DNA of 64,000 nucleotides from contig DASXJE010000018.1 in the NCBI GenBank assembly GCA_036497565.1, positions 5,313-69,312 of the forward strand, read 5' to 3'. The DNA comes from Mycobacteriales bacterium. Its GTDB lineage: Bacteria; Actinomycetota; Actinomycetes; Mycobacteriales; QHCD01. The notes beneath the pieces are model-generated. The model was not told where the DNA came from. It ran no database searches and saw only the letters and a list, made by a program, of their open reading frames with translations. The position numbers and the translations under genes were made by a program. This document shows positions 22,505 to 30,626 of this stretch, piece by piece (the first letter of the stretch is position 1; each line of letters starts with the position of its first letter).

Positions 22505-23209
22505 TCAGACGTGCAGCCCGCACTCCACCTTGTCGCGGCCGGCCCAACGACCGGCCCGGGCGTCTTCGCCGGGCTTGACGGCGCGGGTGCACGGTGCGCA
22601 GCCGACCGAGGTGTAGCCGGCGTCGATCAGCGGATTGATCAGCACGCCGTGCTCTGTGGCGTAGGCGTCGACGTCGTCCTGTGTCCAAGTCGCGAGCGGG
22701 TTGATCTTCACCATGCTGCGCTTCGCGTCCCACGCCACGACCGGAGTGTCAGCGCGGCTCGGCGACTCGTCGCGTCGTACGCCGGAACCCCAGGCGTGGT
22801 AGGAGGACAGCGCGGCCTCCAACGGCCGCACCTTGCGCATCGCGCAGCACTGGTCGGGGTTGCGCTCATACAGCCGTGGGCCGTATTCGGCGTCCTGCTC
22901 GGCGACGGTCTGGGACGGCTTCACCGACAGGACGGTCACCGGCATCGTCGACGCCACGGCGTCGCGGGTGCCGATCGTCTCGGCGAAGTGGTAGCCGGTG
23001 TCGAGGAAGACGACGTGGATCCCGGGGCGGGCGCGCGACGCGAGGTGGGAGAGCACGGCATCGGCCATCGAGGAGGTGATGCACAGACGGTCGCCGAATT
23101 CGTCGGAGGCCCAGCGCAGCACGTCGAGGGGATGTGCGTCTTCCAACTCCGGCCCCGCCGCCTCTACCAGCGACACGAGCCGTGCGTGCTCATAGTCGGG
23201 AGCACTCAC
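22505..23209 (-). CDS. cysH: Adenylyl-sulfate (APS)/PAPS reductase, Fe-S type
   Basis: FLDTGYHFAET, CCAMRKV, SVGCAPCT and KVECGLH. The CC...CxxC pattern indicates the 4Fe-4S APS reductase type. Confidence 0.93.
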   Translation of the reverse strand: MSAPDYEHARLVSLVEAAGPELEDAHPLDVLRWASDEFGDRLCITSSMADAVLSHLASRARPGIHVVFLDTGYHFAETIGTRDAVASTMPVTVLSVKPSQTVAEQDAEYGPRLYERNPDQCCAMRKVRPLEAALSSYHAWGSGVRRDESPSRADTPVVAWDAKRSMVKINPLATWTQDDVDAYATEHGVLINPLIDAGYTSVGCAPCTRAVKPGEDARAGRWAGRDKVECGLHV

Positions 23210-23382
23210 GATGCCTCCTTAGTCGTCAAACCCAGGAACCGTAGCCGCCAGGCCCGACGGCATGCCGCGCACCGCCAGACTCCGGCCTCATCGCCACTCT
23301 CTTCGTCGCGACTGGGTCGGATGTCTTCCTCTCCGCAGTATGGACAGTAAAACGGCGGAGCGTGGGAAACCCGGCTCGTCAC
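23206..23382 (-). CDS. Small CxxC...CxxC (zinc-ribbon-like) protein
   Basis: PFYCPYCGEE...WRCAAC. GTGA overlaps with both sir and cysH. Confidence 0.75.
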   Translation of the reverse strand: MTSRVSHAPPFYCPYCGEEDIRPSRDEESGDEAGVWRCAACRRAWRLRFLGLTTKEAS

Positions 23383-25022
23383 GCCAGCCACTCCTCATCC
23401 GCGCGGGCGACGTAATCGGCGAACGATTCGTCACCTTTGCAGCGTTCTTGATAGCCCCTCAGCACTCGCTCGACGTAATCCGCGGTATCGCTGGCGGCGA
23501 CCCGCAGTCCCCGGAACTTCCGACCGAGTGTCGGATCCGCCCCGAGTTGTCCGCCCAGGTGTATCTGGAAACCATCGACGTCCTCGCCGTTATTCCCTCG
23601 CATCACCATTCCCTTGAGGCCGATGTCGGCGACCTGGAAACGGGCGCAGGAGTTCGGGCAGCCGTTGACGTTGATGGTCACCGGCGTGTCGAAGTCCGGC
23701 ATCCGGCGTTCGAGCTCGTCGACCAGCCAGCTGGCGCGGCCCTTCGTCTCCACGAGCGCCAGCTTGCAGAACTCGATGCCCGTGCAGGCGATCGTGCCGC
23801 GCCGGAACGCACTCGGCCGGACGGCGAGCCCCTCACCCTCCAGAGCGGTGACGAGTGCCTCGACCTGCTCCTCGGCTACGTCGAGAACCACCAGCTGCTG
23901 CTGCGCGGTGGTGTTCACCCGGCCGCCGCCGTACTCGTGTGCGAGGTCGGCGATACGGGAGAGCTGCGTGCCGTTGGTGCGGCCGGACCGCAGCGCGAAA
24001 CCCACGGAGAAGCGCCCGTCGGACTGACGCTGCACGCCGAGGTGGTCGCGCGGGCCGGTCGGAGCCGCGGGTGGTGGGCCGTCCTGGAGCGGGGAGTCGA
24101 GGTAGTCCGACTCGAGGATCTCGCGGAACTTCTCCGGGCCCCAGTCGGCCATGAGGAACTTCAGCCGGGCCCGGTTGCGCGACTTGCGGTAGCCGTAGTC
24201 GCGGAAGACGGCGGTCACGCCTCGCCAGGTCTCCACCAGCCGCTCGACCGGCACGAACGCTCCCAGCCGGACACCGAACCGCGGATTGGTCGACAGCCCG
24301 CCACCGACCCACAGGTCGTAGCCGGCAACGCCGTCCGGACCGGTCACGCCGACGAAGGCGACGTCGTTGATCTCGTGGTTGGTGCAGTGCCGGCCGCAAC
24401 CGGAGACCGAGGTCTTGTACTTGCGCGGCAGGTTGGAGTATTCGGGGTCGCCGACGACCAGGTCGGCCAGCTCGGCGAGCTGCCCGGAAGGGTCGAGGAG
24501 CTCGTCCTCGGCCACCCCGGCGAGCGGACAGCCGAGCATCACCCGGGGCGTGTCACCGCACGCCTCGGTGGTGGACAGCCCGACCGCCTCGAGCCGCCGC
24601 CAGATCTCGGGCACGTCCTCGATCCGGATCCAGTGCAGCTGCACGTTCTGCCGGTCTGTGACGTCGGCCACGTCGCGGCCGTACTCCTTGGCGATTCCGG
24701 CCACGGTGGACAGCTGCCGGGACGAGAGCCGGCCCCCGTCGATGCGGATCCGCAGCATGAAGAATTCGTCTTCGAGCTCGTGCGGCTCGAGTACGGCGGT
24801 CCGGCGACCGGGGATCCCGGCGGCCCGCTGGGTGTAGAGGCCGTACCAGCGGAATCGCTGGCTGAGGTCGGCGGGATCGATGCTGCCGAAGCCGTTCTTC
24901 GAGTAGACGTCGATGATCCGCTGCCTCACGGCGAGGCCGTCGTCGTCCCGCTTCACTCGTTCGCTGGCGTTGAGCGGCTCGCGGTGGCCCAGCGCCCACT
25001 GGCCCTGTGCTGTCGTTGGCAT
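23379..25022 (-). CDS. sir: Ferredoxin-dependent sulfite/nitrite reductase (SirA/NirA)
   Basis: FRWYGLYTQ, TDRQNVQLHW, LPRKYK, and siroheme/Fe-S ligands CTGIEFC...GCPNSC. Confidence 0.93.
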   Translation of the reverse strand: MPTTAQGQWALGHREPLNASERVKRDDDGLAVRQRIIDVYSKNGFGSIDPADLSQRFRWYGLYTQRAAGIPGRRTAVLEPHELEDEFFMLRIRIDGGRLSSRQLSTVAGIAKEYGRDVADVTDRQNVQLHWIRIEDVPEIWRRLEAVGLSTTEACGDTPRVMLGCPLAGVAEDELLDPSGQLAELADLVVGDPEYSNLPRKYKTSVSGCGRHCTNHEINDVAFVGVTGPDGVAGYDLWVGGGLSTNPRFGVRLGAFVPVERLVETWRGVTAVFRDYGYRKSRNRARLKFLMADWGPEKFREILESDYLDSPLQDGPPPAAPTGPRDHLGVQRQSDGRFSVGFALRSGRTNGTQLSRIADLAHEYGGGRVNTTAQQQLVVLDVAEEQVEALVTALEGEGLAVRPSAFRRGTIACTGIEFCKLALVETKGRASWLVDELERRMPDFDTPVTINVNGCPNSCARFQVADIGLKGMVMRGNNGEDVDGFQIHLGGQLGADPTLGRKFRGLRVAASDTADYVERVLRGYQERCKGDESFADYVARADEEWLA

Positions 25023-25093
25023 CGGTTACCTCGCGGTTGTGACGCTCCTGCGCGGCGCTGCGTCAGTACGCCTGCTGGTCAGGGTCTGCGGTG

Positions 25094-25180
25094 TCAGATG
25101 GACACCGGACAGGCGGCGCTGATCGCGTGCTGCAGATCGACATGCAGCCTCGCGACGAGAGGTACACCGCGGTCCGTCAC
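25094..25180 (-). CDS. Putative leader peptide of the sir operon: MTDRGVPLVARLHVDLQHAISAACPVSI
   Basis: Translated by hand. GTG start lies 7 nt after TGTGCGATCCT; contains the HVDL...SA.C motif; paralog at 25264-25344. Confidence 0.8.
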   Translation of the reverse strand: MTDRGVPLVARLHVDLQHAISAACPVSI

Positions 25181-25187
25181 GCCGACT

Positions 25188-25256
25188 AGGATCGCACATG
25201 ATCACTCGGTTCGCACACCCTGTCTGTCGACCGATGTTGCCGACCTGTGCGATCCT
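25188..25256. promoter_or_regulatory. Back-to-back divergent promoters sharing TGTGCGATCCT (extended -10-like)
   Basis: AGGATCGCACA at 25188-25198 and TGTGCGATCCT at 25246-25256, each exactly 7 nt from a leader start codon. Confidence 0.7.
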
Positions 25257-25263
25257 GTGCTGC

Positions 25264-25344
25264 ATGTCTGCGACCGCGGTGCTCGTCGCTCGCCTGCATG
25301 TCGATCTGCAGCGGGTCGCCAGCGCGGTCTGTCCGTCCGACTGA
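25264..25344 (+). CDS. Putative leader peptide of the cysG operon: MSATAVLVARLHVDLQRVASAVCPSD
   Basis: Translated by hand. ATG lies 7 nt after TGTGCGATCCT; shares LVARLHVDLQ and SAxCP with the minus-strand leader. Confidence 0.8.
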   Translation: MSATAVLVARLHVDLQRVASAVCPSD

Positions 25345-25462
25345 ATCGGGTCGGCGCCTCTCCCGTCGCACCATCTCGCCTCGTCTGCAGGCGCCGGACC
25401 CGGGTACGTCGCCCCTCACGACTCGACGCCACGAGGACCGACCAGCAGACCAGGAGAGCCTC

Positions 25463-25525
25463 ATGACCATCATCCCGACGCCGGCGGAGACCGTCGCAGG
25501 CGGCCCGATCGGCGGTGCCCGGTGA
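25463..25525 (+). CDS. 20-aa mini-ORF MTIIPTPAETVAGGPIGGAR coupled to cysG
   Basis: AGGAG RBS at 25452-25456. Its TGA overlaps the cysG GTG (GTGA). Confidence 0.5.
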   Translation: MTIIPTPAETVAGGPIGGAR

Positions 25526-26718
25526 GCGTGGGCTACCCGGTCGTCCTCGACCTGACCGGCCGCCGGGTCGTCGTCGTCGGGGCCGGGCCGGTCGCCGAGC
25601 GGCGGGTCGCCGGGCTGCGCGACGCGGGCGCCGACGTACACGTCGTGGCACCCGTCGTCACGGGTCACTTCGACGCCGACGTCACCGTGCACCGGCGCTC
25701 CTACGTCGACGGTGACCTCGACGGGGCGTGGATGGCGCACGCCTGCACCGACGATCCCGCCGTCAACGCCGAGGTCGCCGCCGCGGCCGAGCAGCGGCAG
25801 ATTCCCTGCGTGCGGGCCGACGCCGCGCCGGACGGGACCGCCCGCACACCGGCCGTCGCCCGCTCCGGCGAGGTGGTCGTCGCCGTGTCCTCCGACGACC
25901 CGGTCCGCTCCGTCCGTATCCGCAACCGGATCTCGACCCTGCTCGACCGCTCCGAGCTGCCCGTCCGCCGGTCCCGTCGGGAGGGTGCCGGCCGGGTCAC
26001 GCTCGTCGGGGGAGGACCCGGCGACCCCGGTCTGATCACGGTCGAGGGGCGCGCGCTGGTGGCCGACGCCGACGTGCTGGTCGTCGACCGGCTGGCGCCC
26101 CGCGGCCTGCTCGACACGGTCGACGACGACGTCGAGGTGATCGACGTAGGCAAGGCGCCCTACCGACACGGGGCGACCCAGCAGGAGATCAACGAGCTGC
26201 TGGTCGACCGGGCCGGGCGCGGTCTGCACGTGGTGCGGCTCAAGGGCGGCGACCCGTTCGTGCTCGGCCGGGGCGGCGAGGAGGTCGCCGCGTGCACCGA
26301 GGCGGGCGTGCCGGTGCACGTCGTCCCCGGGGTCACGTCGGCTCTCGCCGGTCCGGCGATGGCCGGTATCCCGCTGACCCACCGCGGGATCGCCGCCGAC
26401 TTCGCCGTCGTGTCGGCGCATCTGGATCCCACCCACACCGGATCGACGGTCGACTGGGCGGCGCTGGCGTCCGGCCCGGCGACCCTGGTGCTGCTGATGG
26501 CGATGGAGCGGCTCGAGTCGGTGTGCCAGACCCTGATCGGGCACGGCCGGTCGGCCGACACCCCGGCCGCGGTGGTCCAAGAGGCGACGACGCCCGCCCA
26601 GCGCACGCTCACGTCGACGCTCGGCTCGCTGGCCGCCGACGTACGCCAGGCCGGAATGGGGTCGCCGGCCGTGGTGGTCGTCGGTGAGGTGGTCCGGCTG
26701 GCCCGGACGGTCGGATGA
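25522..26718 (+). CDS. cysG: Siroheme synthase-like fusion (precorrin-2 dehydrogenase + uroporphyrinogen-III C-methyltransferase)
   Basis: N-terminal VVVGAGPVAERR; C-terminal GGGPGDPGLIT, RLKGGDPFVLGRGGEE and VPGVTSA motifs. Confidence 0.9.
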   Translation: MSVGYPVVLDLTGRRVVVVGAGPVAERRVAGLRDAGADVHVVAPVVTGHFDADVTVHRRSYVDGDLDGAWMAHACTDDPAVNAEVAAAAEQRQIPCVRADAAPDGTARTPAVARSGEVVVAVSSDDPVRSVRIRNRISTLLDRSELPVRRSRREGAGRVTLVGGGPGDPGLITVEGRALVADADVLVVDRLAPRGLLDTVDDDVEVIDVGKAPYRHGATQQEINELLVDRAGRGLHVVRLKGGDPFVLGRGGEEVAACTEAGVPVHVVPGVTSALAGPAMAGIPLTHRGIAADFAVVSAHLDPTHTGSTVDWAALASGPATLVLLMAMERLESVCQTLIGHGRSADTPAAVVQEATTPAQRTLTSTLGSLAADVRQAGMGSPAVVVVGEVVRLARTVG

Positions 26719-27521
26719 CCGATCCGGTGCTGCTCGCGGTCGCCCACGGATCTCGGGACGAGCGGGCGGCACCGGCGCTGGACCGGCTGATCGAACGGGT
26801 CCGCGCGGGCGCGCCGGAGGTCGACGTACGGCTGTCCTACGTCGACCACACGTCGCCGTCGGTCACCCGCGCCCTGGAGGACCTGTCGACGCGGCCGACG
26901 GTGGTGGTCCCGTTGCTGCTCACCGCGGCGTCCCACACGAAGGGCGACGTGGCCGCGGCGGTGCGGGCCGCCCGGCGGCCGGACCGGCACCTGCACCAGG
27001 CCCGGCCGCTGGCGCCCCATCCCGGCCTGCTCGCCGCCCTGGACCGGCGCCTCGACGAGGCCGGCGTGGACCGGCGTACGGCGGTGGTGCTGGCGGCGGT
27101 GGGCTCGGCCGATCCGGACGCCAACGCCGACGTCGTCGCCGACGCCCGTCGGCTGTGGGAGTGGCGCCGCGCTTCGGCCCCGGTCGAGGCGGGGTTTGCC
27201 TCGGCGACCACGCCGACGGTCGCCGAGGCCGTCGACCGGCTCCGGCGGCTCGGCTACGACGAGGTCGCCGTCGCGGCGTACGCCCTCGCCCCCGGGAGAC
27301 TGCTCGACAAGGCCACCGCCGGCCTCGACGTGGCCACGGTCACCGAGGAGCTCGCCGACACCCCGGAGGCCGCGGAAGTGGTACTCGAGCGCTACCGGGA
27401 GGCCATCGCGGGCGACATCCGGATGGGCTGCGACACCTGCCTCTACCGGGTCGGGTGGCCGGGCCGCGAGGACCGCCAAGGCGCCCCCCAGCGGGTCCAC
27501 CCGCACCCAGACGACGCCTGA
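26715..27521 (+). CDS. sirB: Sirohydrochlorin chelatase (CbiX/SirB family)
   Basis: VAHGSRD, VPLLLTAASH and VGSADPDAN motifs. ATGA overlap with cysG. Confidence 0.85.
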   Translation: MTDPVLLAVAHGSRDERAAPALDRLIERVRAGAPEVDVRLSYVDHTSPSVTRALEDLSTRPTVVVPLLLTAASHTKGDVAAAVRAARRPDRHLHQARPLAPHPGLLAALDRRLDEAGVDRRTAVVLAAVGSADPDANADVVADARRLWEWRRASAPVEAGFASATTPTVAEAVDRLRRLGYDEVAVAAYALAPGRLLDKATAGLDVATVTEELADTPEAAEVVLERYREAIAGDIRMGCDTCLYRVGWPGREDRQGAPQRVHPHPDDA

Positions 27522-27866: not shown

Positions 27867-27936
27867 AAGCGCCGCCTGGGGCGCCGCCGAACGCTGGGGA
27901 CGACGGTTGCGCGGGTGGTTCGGGGAGCGCTAATCT

Positions 27937-27952
27937 TCGAACACATGTTCGA
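27937..27952 (+). promoter_or_regulatory. LexA (SOS) box
   Basis: TCGAAC-ACAT-GTTCGA is a perfect actinobacterial consensus, immediately after the -10-like TAATCT (27931-27936). Confidence 0.85.
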
Positions 27953-27980
27953 ACACCGCGTCCCCGGGGAGGGTGCCGAG

Positions 27981-28403
27981 ATGAGTCCGACCCGCCTGCG
28001 ACCGCCGCCGTCACGGTCGTCGGTCACCATGCTGGATCTTGCGCAGACCTGCCTCGTTGAGGCAGCGGCCGCACAGCGCCCGGCCGAGCGCTATGTCGCC
28101 GCCCACCTCGCCGCCCTGCGGGGAGCCGCGGCGGTGCTCGCCTCGCGCGCCCATGCCGGTGCCGGCCGCCCGCGGCGACCGGTGAGTGCGTGGGCGCTGC
28201 TCGGCGCGCTTGCCCCGGAGCTGACGGAATGGGCCGCCTTCTTCGCCGCCGGGGCGGCGACGCGTCAGGCGGCCGAGGCGGGTGCGACCGGGGTAGTCAC
28301 GCAACGGGACGCCGACGATCTGCTGCGTGACGCCGAGACGTTCCTGGCGGTCGTCGCCGCGACCATCGAGCCCGCGCCGTGGCGCGGCATACCGGTGGGG
28401 TGA
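27981..28403 (+). CDS. SAV_6107-like HEPN-domain protein
   Basis: RYVAAHLAALRGAAAVLA, WALLGALAPELTEWAAFFA and RDADDLLRDAETFL motifs. GGAGG RBS. Confidence 0.75.
   Translation: MSPTRLRPPPSRSSVTMLDLAQTCLVEAAAAQRPAERYVAAHLAALRGAAAVLASRAHAGAGRPRRPVSAWALLGALAPELTEWAAFFAAGAATRQAAEAGATGVVTQRDADDLLRDAETFLAVVAATIEPAPWRGIPVG

Positions 28404-30626
<2,223 letters not shown>

Follow-up and report, generated by a model that had tools for sequence, protein, structure and literature searches.

The 64,000-nucleotide stretch of contig DASXJE010000018.1 from a Mycobacteriales bacterium that was analysed here (the whole of which is termed 'the window' below) contains, between two sulfur-assimilation operons, a pair of very small open reading frames (ORFs) that diverge from a single spacer. 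The minus-strand ORF (25180..25094) begins with a GTG codon at 25180, comprises 28 codons followed by TGA, points toward sir and cysH, and is translated as V(M)TDRGVPLVARLHVDLQHAISAACPVSI; the plus-strand ORF (25264..25344) begins with an ATG codon at 25264, comprises 26 codons followed by TGA, points toward cysG and sirB, and is translated as MSATAVLVARLHVDLQRVASAVCPSD. An earlier reading of the DNA (referred to here as the original prediction) had described two such divergent micro-ORFs sharing the blocks LVARLHVDLQ and SAxC, and the translations and repeats of the window contain them as described; for the minus peptide the ORF itself stands, but the initial methionine written for it implied an ATG codon, and the real start is GTG. 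The flanking genes were also correctly named, as judged by Pfam and NCBIfam profiles. Behind the minus leader, the first gene is sir, encoding a NirA-family, ferredoxin-type sulfite reductase (23379..25022, minus; Pfam NIR_SIR and NIR_SIR_ferr, NCBIfam NirA-family), in the same operon as the APS/PAPS reductase gene cysH (22505..23209, minus; Pfam PAPS_reduct; PRK02090 at 261.9 bits, cutoff 154). On the other side lie a cysG-like siroheme synthase gene (25522..26718, plus), whose product combines a siroheme-synthase NAD-binding N-terminal domain with a uroporphyrinogen-III C-methyltransferase in Pfam and scores 280.7 bits against TIGR01469 (cutoff 185) and 71.5 bits against TIGR01470 (cutoff 62.3), and a gene for a CbiX/SirB-type sirohydrochlorin chelatase (26715..27521, plus; Pfam CbiX, 99.1 bits).

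The two ORFs are mirror images in more than their orientation, since their coding arms form a 54-nucleotide inverted repeat (25106-25159 and 25282-25335) that is 80% complementary. Within the 64 kb of the window, a degenerate back-translation of AxLHVDLQ matched these two sites and no other, and it gave 0 matches in 100 shuffles, and a hidden Markov model of the motif, applied to a six-frame translation of the window, recovered the two leader ORFs only and no third copy; the minus leader scores 29.5 bits (E 4e-7) against the model of its own family. The conserved Cys codon is TGT in each (25111..25109 on the minus strand and 25330-25332 on the plus strand), and it is the only Cys codon in its ORF. 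Neither peptide therefore has the run of at least two consecutive Cys codons by which polycysteine attenuators are recognised, a distinction that had been drawn at the outset and that the codon count upholds.

The limits first assigned to both ORFs also stand, on the evidence of a minus-strand stop codon and of a syntenic relative, L243 (a 622-kb metagenome contig from ENA that is ~85% identical overall), which together exclude longer versions. An in-frame stop at 25204..25202 on the minus strand leaves no earlier start for the minus ORF. Extension of the plus ORF to 48 amino acids (from an ATG at 25198) or to 36 amino acids (from a TTG at 25234) was considered and rejected, since the in-frame sequence upstream of the ATG at 25264 changes its amino acids freely between the window and the corresponding L243 protein (P0001), and since the reading frame of the minus paralogue is closed by a stop codon at the corresponding position. 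Over-extended calls of exactly these kinds are present in databases, at 36 amino acids by JGI and at 48 amino acids in the NCBI/ENA record for L243 (P0001), and small ORFs of this type are either missed or wrongly extended by gene callers.

The family to which the peptides are related is already catalogued by an annotation pipeline. The plus peptide is a member of NCBIfam NF042934 (37.5 bits, cutoff 27; E 1.2e-9), with its residues 6-23 aligned to positions 2-19 of the 19-position profile. The minus peptide reaches 17.0 bits, below that cutoff, with residues 8-17 alone aligned, and is by profile score a divergent relative and not a formal member. The motif with which the model ends, LVARLHVDL..SA.C, is present in both, and the resemblance to actinobacterial putative leader peptides that the original prediction had pointed to accordingly holds as membership for one peptide and as kinship for the other. 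Both fall below the 45-bit cutoff of NF042936, the model of the Ms4527A family of Cys-rich leader peptides (26.5 bits for plus, 20.5 bits for minus), to which their similarity is weak (E 3e-6 and 2.5e-4).

A search of a 5.8-billion-protein collection, using the two window peptides joined as a query, returned 156 small called proteins from Cryptosporangium, Frankia, Embleya, Jatrophihabitans, Streptomyces and Mycobacteriales metagenome-assembled genomes, many of which are named 'putative leader peptide' by NCBI; among the matches listed, 120 of 120 carry LVARLH(V/I)DLxRxxSAxC. A second search with Streptomyces-type queries added 215 more, all of them Streptomyces members, and more than 300 called small proteins carry the motif overall. 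In addition, a degenerate DNA pattern of the motif was scanned across one genome per species and across metagenome contigs, and at least 136 unique members were retained after filtering, in which unrelated long ORFs with LHVDLQRV from the metagenome scan were removed by requiring an SA.C tail and a nearby stop. The members fall into three subtypes: (i) type A, from Streptomyces, with the core LVARLHVDLCRLASAIC and two Cys codons; (ii) type B, also from Streptomyces, with the core LVARLHVDLCRCMSAVCC.. (containing CRCMSAVCC) and up to five Cys codons; and (iii) type Q, from outside Streptomyces, with the core LVARLHVDLQRVxSAxC.. and usually one Cys codon, as in the window. In the literature searched, no paper was found that contains the motif, describes the family or tests its function, and the name attached to NF042934 is an annotation label.

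The association of the family with sulfur metabolism is very strong. When each of the 136 unique relatives was classified (using Pfam) by the first co-oriented gene less than 700 nt downstream, 130 of them were found to lie directly upstream of a sulfur or cysteine gene. The most frequent of these is cysO (ThiS-like), followed by cysM (56 members), then a gene for an SDF-family (sodium:dicarboxylate) symporter (31), sir (18), cysC-cysD (10), cysH (8) and an ssuA-like NMT1 binding protein (4), with tauD, cbiX and cysG represented once each, the last of these being the window itself; the other 6 members had too little sequence or no match. This motif and profile search across actinobacterial loci is the check that had been proposed for the claimed linkage to sulfur genes, and the claim came through it well. 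Both window leaders are likewise co-oriented with, and positioned upstream of, a sulfur operon (sir-cysH and cysG-cbiX, respectively). In the sampled actinobacterial loci, a 17-residue motif with a single invariant UGU precedes most operons for sulfate assimilation, sulfonate uptake, CysO/CysM and SDF transporters.

The same layout bears on whether the products might instead be trans-acting small proteins (binders of thiols or metals, or regulators of sulfur enzymes) that are merely encoded beside sulfur genes. Purifying selection at the amino-acid level and a conserved Cys are what such a protein would display. Several paralogues occur per locus, however, each of them placed 30-180 nt ahead of a different sulfur operon and reading in the same direction as it, and twin copies lie 60-290 nt apart, where a diffusible product would need no copy per operon; moreover, the N- and C-termini of the family peptides are hypervariable. 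A role in trans is accordingly considered very improbable.

The start of each leader is preceded by a promoter-like element. TGTGCGATCCT, an exact 11-mer resembling an extended -10 element (TGTGc followed by GATCCT), is identical ahead of both leaders; the plus-strand copy (25246..25256) lies exactly 7 nt before the ATG at 25264, and its mirror copy on the minus strand (25188..25198), an exact inverted repeat, lies exactly 7 nt before the GTG at 25180, in agreement with the geometry given in the original prediction. Both copies are 100% conserved in L243, and the 7 nt that separate the plus-strand copy from its start codon match L243 at only 3 of 7 positions and include no Shine-Dalgarno (SD) sequence. 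A scan with sigma-70 and terminator consensus sequences found no promoter, but that consensus does not cover actinobacterial promoters, and the family-wide spacing between -10 element and start codon was used in its place. Among Q-type members, TGnNAnnnT is found 6 or 7 nt before an in-frame ATG or GTG in 34 of 47, and among B-type members it precedes an in-frame start in 27 of 28 (at 7 nt in 25, and at 6 nt in 2), while type A displays a plain TACGAT -10 element 6 nt before its ATG. Start codons in the other two frames, examined as a control, show no such spacing to a -10 element and are scattered. Because the spacing of the extended -10 element is conserved, in the absence of an SD sequence and with a 7-nt spacer that is free to vary, there is good indirect evidence that transcription would start at or next to the leader start codon, such that the leaders, as had been suggested, appear to be leaderless in all three subtypes.

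A third, imperfect copy of the element, TGTGCGAACCGAGT (25204..25217, minus), occupies the inter-promoter spacer as both a direct and an inverted repeat, the latter with respect to the plus-strand copy across a 28-nt gap. Its core (TCGCACA) is kept in L243 and the bases around it differ; it is possibly a transcription-factor operator or a degenerate -10 element. Separately, in Streptomyces type-B loci (L008, L011, L012 and others), a conserved palindrome, CTTTGA-N5-TCAAAG, is located from -39 to -23 relative to the leader start, just upstream of the TGTTAACGT -10 element of a leader that lies ahead of an SDF-family symporter gene, and looks like a transcription-factor site.

Comparison of codons that were left free by the search patterns shows that selection acts on the amino-acid sequence. 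Ser14 is encoded by AGY in 100 members and by TCN in 31, Arg11 is encoded by CGN in 107 members and by AGR in 28, and Arg4 (free in the genome pattern) is encoded by CGC, CGG, CGT, CGA or AGG, of which AGG, CGC and CGA occur in the window lineage; the remaining variation is found mostly at third codon positions. Between the window and L243, in which 32% of third positions differ in cysG and 50 of its 388 codons are changed non-synonymously, the 26 codons of the plus leader show 5 changes, all of them synonymous (0 non-synonymous). For the minus leader, identity to the L243 counterpart is 97%, the only changes being a synonymous replacement of an Arg codon (AGG to CGA) and an Ile-to-Leu replacement of the last residue. 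The 71-nt spacer on the sir side is identical at 70 of 71 positions (99%), against the baseline of ~85%, and on the cysG side 17 bases are identical within 25345-25364, with differences at the 3' end of that segment, and identity in the rest of the spacer is 62%. In the window lineage, constraint at the level of RNA thus exists on the sir side.

These observations also allow an explanation to be weighed in which the signal is carried by nucleic acid alone (as a riboswitch, a small RNA or an inverted-repeat operator) and the ORFs are incidental. The two copies do form the 54-nt inverted repeat described above, the heptamer TGTGCGA occurs three times in the inter-leader spacer, and the minus leader RNA is 97-99% conserved relative to L243. 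Each transcript contains only one arm of the repeat, however, and the exchanges between AGY and TCN codons for Ser and between CGN and AGR codons for Arg preserve the peptide while changing 2-3 bases per codon. An Rfam scan of 24500-26000, with E values up to 10 allowed, gave best matches at E ~1 or more, all far below gathering scores, and none overlapped the leader ORFs and their shared spacer (25094-25344); the folding energies are not unusual, and an operator role for TGTGCGA could coexist with leader ORFs but would not replace them. That the ORFs are incidental is therefore judged extremely improbable.

The conserved Cys codon is subject to a more stringent constraint than its amino acid alone would impose, being TGT in 135 of 136 members in genomes with third positions that are >90% G+C. 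At the other Cys position (codon 10, in types A and B), TGC is found in 85 members and TGT in 4. The base that follows the conserved TGT is a pyrimidine in 127 of 136 members. The position of this codon within the peptide is equally strict: counted from the L of HVDL, Cys is residue +8 without exception in 239 of 239 called proteins, whereas anything from 0 to 19 codons may lie between Cys and the stop codon (0-4 in most members). It may be argued from this combination of a fixed HVDL-to-Cys spacing and a variable Cys-to-stop spacing that the functional state of the ribosome has the Cys codon in its decoding centre. If UGU occupied the A site, HVDL would lie 8-11 residues from the peptidyl-transferase centre, a distance that corresponds to the constriction region of the exit tunnel in known arrest peptides.

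The same spacings speak to the idea that the leader is a TnaC-type arrest peptide that senses a small molecule (free cysteine, O-acetyl- or O-phosphoserine, sulfide or a thiol, for example) in place of tRNA-Cys charging. The strong conservation of the peptide, with fixed internal spacing, is reminiscent of known sensory arrest peptides, and the Cys codon is close to the stop in most members. The conserved block is positioned relative to Cys and not to the stop, which argues against a TnaC-like block of release; with a block-to-stop distance that varies over 0-19 codons, inhibition of release at the stop codon is unlikely, and both the invariant rare TGT and the extra Cys codons of the sister subtypes point to the decoding of Cys. 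Ligand sensing of this type is regarded as improbable.

The nearest precedents for a cysteine-responsive leader are found in mycobacteria, in which leaderless, Cys-rich small ORFs, including those ahead of sulfite reductase (Ms4527; Rv2391A), have been reported to act as cysteine-responsive attenuators, and in which ribosomes stalled on Cys codons are proposed to open an RNA duplex that hides a downstream SD sequence (bioRxiv 10.1101/834739; PMC13096801; PMC9094748). These polycysteine attenuators include Ms5788A, Ms4527A, Rv2391A and Rv2334A (Canestrari et al. 2020, bioRxiv 10.1101/834739), and it is only these polycysteine mycobacterial cousins that have so far been tested experimentally. 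Like the window leaders, they are short leaderless ORFs (leaderless by prediction in the window) that form the first cistron of cysteine or sulfur operons, including that of sulfite reductase, and they have a Cys codon near the 3' end and a weak similarity, through the Ms4527A model, to the window peptides. They differ in having two or more Cys codons in a row in place of one, in lacking the long conserved non-Cys block of the window peptides (which are below cutoff for NF042936), and in their SD-sequestering duplex, which was not recovered for the window leaders in a folding test that considers equilibrium structures only. From the shared position, predicted leaderless architecture and weak similarity, it follows that the same function is the most likely one, and we consider it probable that both micro-ORFs are cis-acting, leaderless, cysteine-responsive leader ORFs of the LVARLHVDLxRxxSAxC family, each heading one sulfur operon.

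The scheme that we infer for such a leader extends from leaderless transcription and pausing at UGU to the role of the peptide, the response to cysteine, and the direction and mechanism of the output. Each leader would be transcribed from its own extended -10 promoter, TGTGCGATCCT, on a transcript whose 5' end coincides with the start codon or is adjacent to it, and the translating ribosome would reach the single invariant UGU, a codon that is decoded by wobble and is rare where codon usage is GC-rich. A shortage of charged tRNA-Cys would make the ribosome pause there with a 16-residue conserved nascent chain in the exit tunnel (HVDL being 8-11 residues behind Cys), and that chain would probably slow or stabilise the decoding step sufficiently for it to serve as a sensor. 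The fate of the downstream RNA would then be altered by the paused ribosome, such that the operon is expressed; when cysteine is ample, the leader would be finished quickly and the operon would stay low. Candidate outputs are the unmasking of an SD sequence, as in mycobacteria, or the relief of Rho-type termination on a C-rich spacer. With a sensor of one type heading both operons of the window, sulfite reductase and the supply of its siroheme would respond together, and the reductase and the siroheme-making enzymes could be switched together without a shared transcript.

A bolder version of this scheme, in which a slow-down or arrest programmed by the nascent chain makes the decoding of one wobble-read UGU rate-limiting, so that this codon reports the charging of tRNA-Cys, as a common switch for sulfate assimilation across Actinobacteria, is put forward tentatively, as a possibility and no more than that. 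If it were true, the family would represent a distinct kind of peptide-assisted amino-acid sensor, and the mirrored pair in the window would couple sulfite reductase to siroheme synthesis. The proposal of a sequence-dependent ribosome-arrest sensor, which the original prediction had made, is a reasonable inference, consistent with the invariance of both the HVDL-to-Cys spacing and the TGT codon. In common with TnaC, SecM and ErmCL, the window leaders are short ORFs in cis, with conservation at the amino-acid level and a fixed spacing to a presumed stall codon; they differ in that the family has no sequence similarity to any known arrest peptide and its stalling is presumed, and in that the quantity sensed is probably tRNA-Cys charging and not a bound ligand or a pulling force. 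In common with trpL, hisL and leuL, the leaders contain codons for the end product of the pathway, and a rare synonymous codon is preferred where sensing is presumed to occur; the CUA codons of leuL, which are rare, are the parallel to UGU. These classical leaders differ from those of the window, which have a single regulatory codon, a predicted leaderless mRNA and no terminator-like site that could be found in 24900-25650.

The simpler counterpart to a peptide-assisted sensor is a plain starvation attenuator, in which the Cys codon and its translation alone matter and the LVARLHVDL..SA block has no role in pausing, being conserved, for example, for efficient leaderless elongation, for turnover of the peptide or through overlapping RNA constraints. 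The mycobacterial model requires only Cys codons and an RNA duplex, the extra Cys codons of some subtypes (CRCMSAVCC in type B, and the Ms4527A family) suggest that the dosage of Cys codons evolves, and the synonymous sites of the minus leader are conserved as well relative to L243. Opposed to this are the retention of the 16-residue block at the amino-acid level across orders, through switches of codon class, and its invariant spacing to Cys combined with a free distance to the stop, which are hard to account for in the absence of a position-specific role for the nascent chain; nor was any consistent RNA covariation found inside the ORF. A plain attenuator is for these reasons thought rather unlikely. 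The invariance of UGU and of its spacing, and the conservation of amino acids around a single Cys, make a peptide-assisted, single-codon sensor directly testable, and the family offers a clean system for asking whether a conserved nascent chain can turn one codon into an amino-acid sensor.

Several observations weigh against the assignment of both micro-ORFs as cysteine-responsive leaders. A single Cys codon is a weaker sensor of starvation than the runs found in mycobacteria; in the minus peptide the nearly invariant Arg11 is replaced by His ('QHAISAAC'), and the score is below the cutoff for NF042934; and the TGTGCGA repeats could be operators, in which case control by a transcription factor may coexist with the leaders. 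At the level of RNA, masking of the footprint of a ribosome at the Cys codon produced no rise in predicted SD accessibility (partition-function folding, a weak test that is limited to equilibrium), the leader RNAs fold no better than shuffled sequences (z -1.1 and -1.9), no family-wide hairpin was found behind the Cys codon (mean z 0.08, -0.08 and -0.43), and no intrinsic terminator-like site (a hairpin followed by a T-run) was found in 24900-25650.

The folding sample comprised 53 type-A leaders, 16 sir leaders and the window leaders. Predicted accessibility of the SD sequence was 0.44 for type A in all three states (free RNA, ribosome stalled at Cys, and ribosome at the stop codon), 0.46, 0.50 and 0.48, respectively, for Q-type sir leaders, and 0.47 in all states for the sir leader of the window, such that unmasking of the SD by a Cys-stalled ribosome was without effect in this equilibrium-only test and was set aside. 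Two further candidate structures were rejected. Both window leaders and some relatives have a stop-codon hairpin directly behind the Cys codon, without family-wide enrichment, and a hairpin inside the ORF (pairing the Ala-Arg with the Arg-Val codons, CUGCA..UGCAG) has wobble-position partners that do not covary, as type B keeps CGC opposite UGC and type Q is split between CGC and CGG opposite CAG. RNAalifold, applied to 56 type-A leaders, produced no convincing consensus structure, the spacer being too variable to align. The leader spacers vary in length and in sequence but are consistently rich in C (about 0.40-0.51, as compared with 0.34-0.41 in downstream coding sequence) and poor in G (about 0.20-0.31, as compared with 0.30-0.38), a bias that is weaker in the window's own spacers; such a composition is compatible with Rho-type termination, but is only a hint of it.

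The mirrored arrangement of two leaders, of which the original prediction knew no description and for which none was found in the literature searched, is in fact common. Divergent family pairs less than 400 nt apart were found in 17 of 40 Q-type (non-Streptomyces) loci, counting the window and L243, and in these twin loci one side is almost always sir, while the partner operon varies: it is cysH-cbiX in L132 and L141, cysC-cysD(-cysN-cbiX) in L050, L196, L209, L222 and L245, an ssuA-like transporter in L003, cbiX-cysH in L231, and cysG-cbiX in the window lineage only. The minus peptide of the window groups with the sir-linked leaders of other taxa, which have the form (V/M)T(D/S)RG..LVARLH..SAAC, and the plus peptide fits the general consensus of the family. 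The original prediction had seen the two as a duplicated promoter-plus-leader cassette; this grouping runs counter to a recent duplication in place, and the pair therefore represents an old arrangement in which the partner operon changes. In L132 (about 770-835), L141, L162 and L237, two LVARL motifs are just 62-66 nt apart, and in L132, for which the sequence was read, both -10 elements are halves of one palindrome, GTGTGnCACAC.

The segments that separate the leaders from their operons differ on the two sides of the window. The 71-nt spacer between the stop codon of the minus leader and the ATG of sir (25023..25093, minus) contains the hairpin that encloses the stop codon and the SD sequence of sir (GAGGU). 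The spacer behind the plus leader (25345..25463, plus) contains CCUCUCC, which is complementary to the SD sequence downstream, and is followed by a 20-codon ORF (uORF2; 25464..25526, plus) that encodes MTIIPTPAETVAGGPIGGAR, has a strong SD sequence of its own (CAGGAGA) and ends in a stop codon that overlaps the GTG start of cysG at 25522 (GTGA). In L243, the SD sequence, start, length and overlap of this ORF are kept at a nucleotide identity of only 68%, and its product has no match in NCBIfam. As cysG is without a good SD sequence, its translation probably depends on this ORF, which is likely to be a translational-coupling ORF for cysG. The target of control by the plus leader must then be either the 20-codon ORF or transcription through the spacer.

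Several minor features of the surrounding genes may be recorded. A 61-amino-acid ORF with two CxxC pairs (FYCPYCGEE...WRCAACRRAW; 23206-23391, minus) bridges sir and cysH and overlaps both at its ends; near-identical copies are present in L001, L002 and L243, and relatives at 43-63% identity (tblastn E <1e-3) occur in 10 more distant loci, including L050, the only locus with checked gene positions, in which the match lies between sir and cysH. The sir gene of L243 (2177-3474, minus) is called as two fragments of 107 and 332 amino acids, which reflect either a frameshift or pseudogene or an error of long-read assembly. In loci L246-L248 (233-1296), the leader-sir unit is directly preceded, on its own strand, by a gene for an Rrf2-family regulator and by cysC. 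Finally, beyond the cbiX gene of the window, a gene for a SAV_6107-like HEPN-domain protein (27915-28403, plus) precedes that of an NAD-dependent DNA ligase (28410-30626), and this order of cbiX, SAV_6107-like gene and DNA ligase gene is kept in L243.

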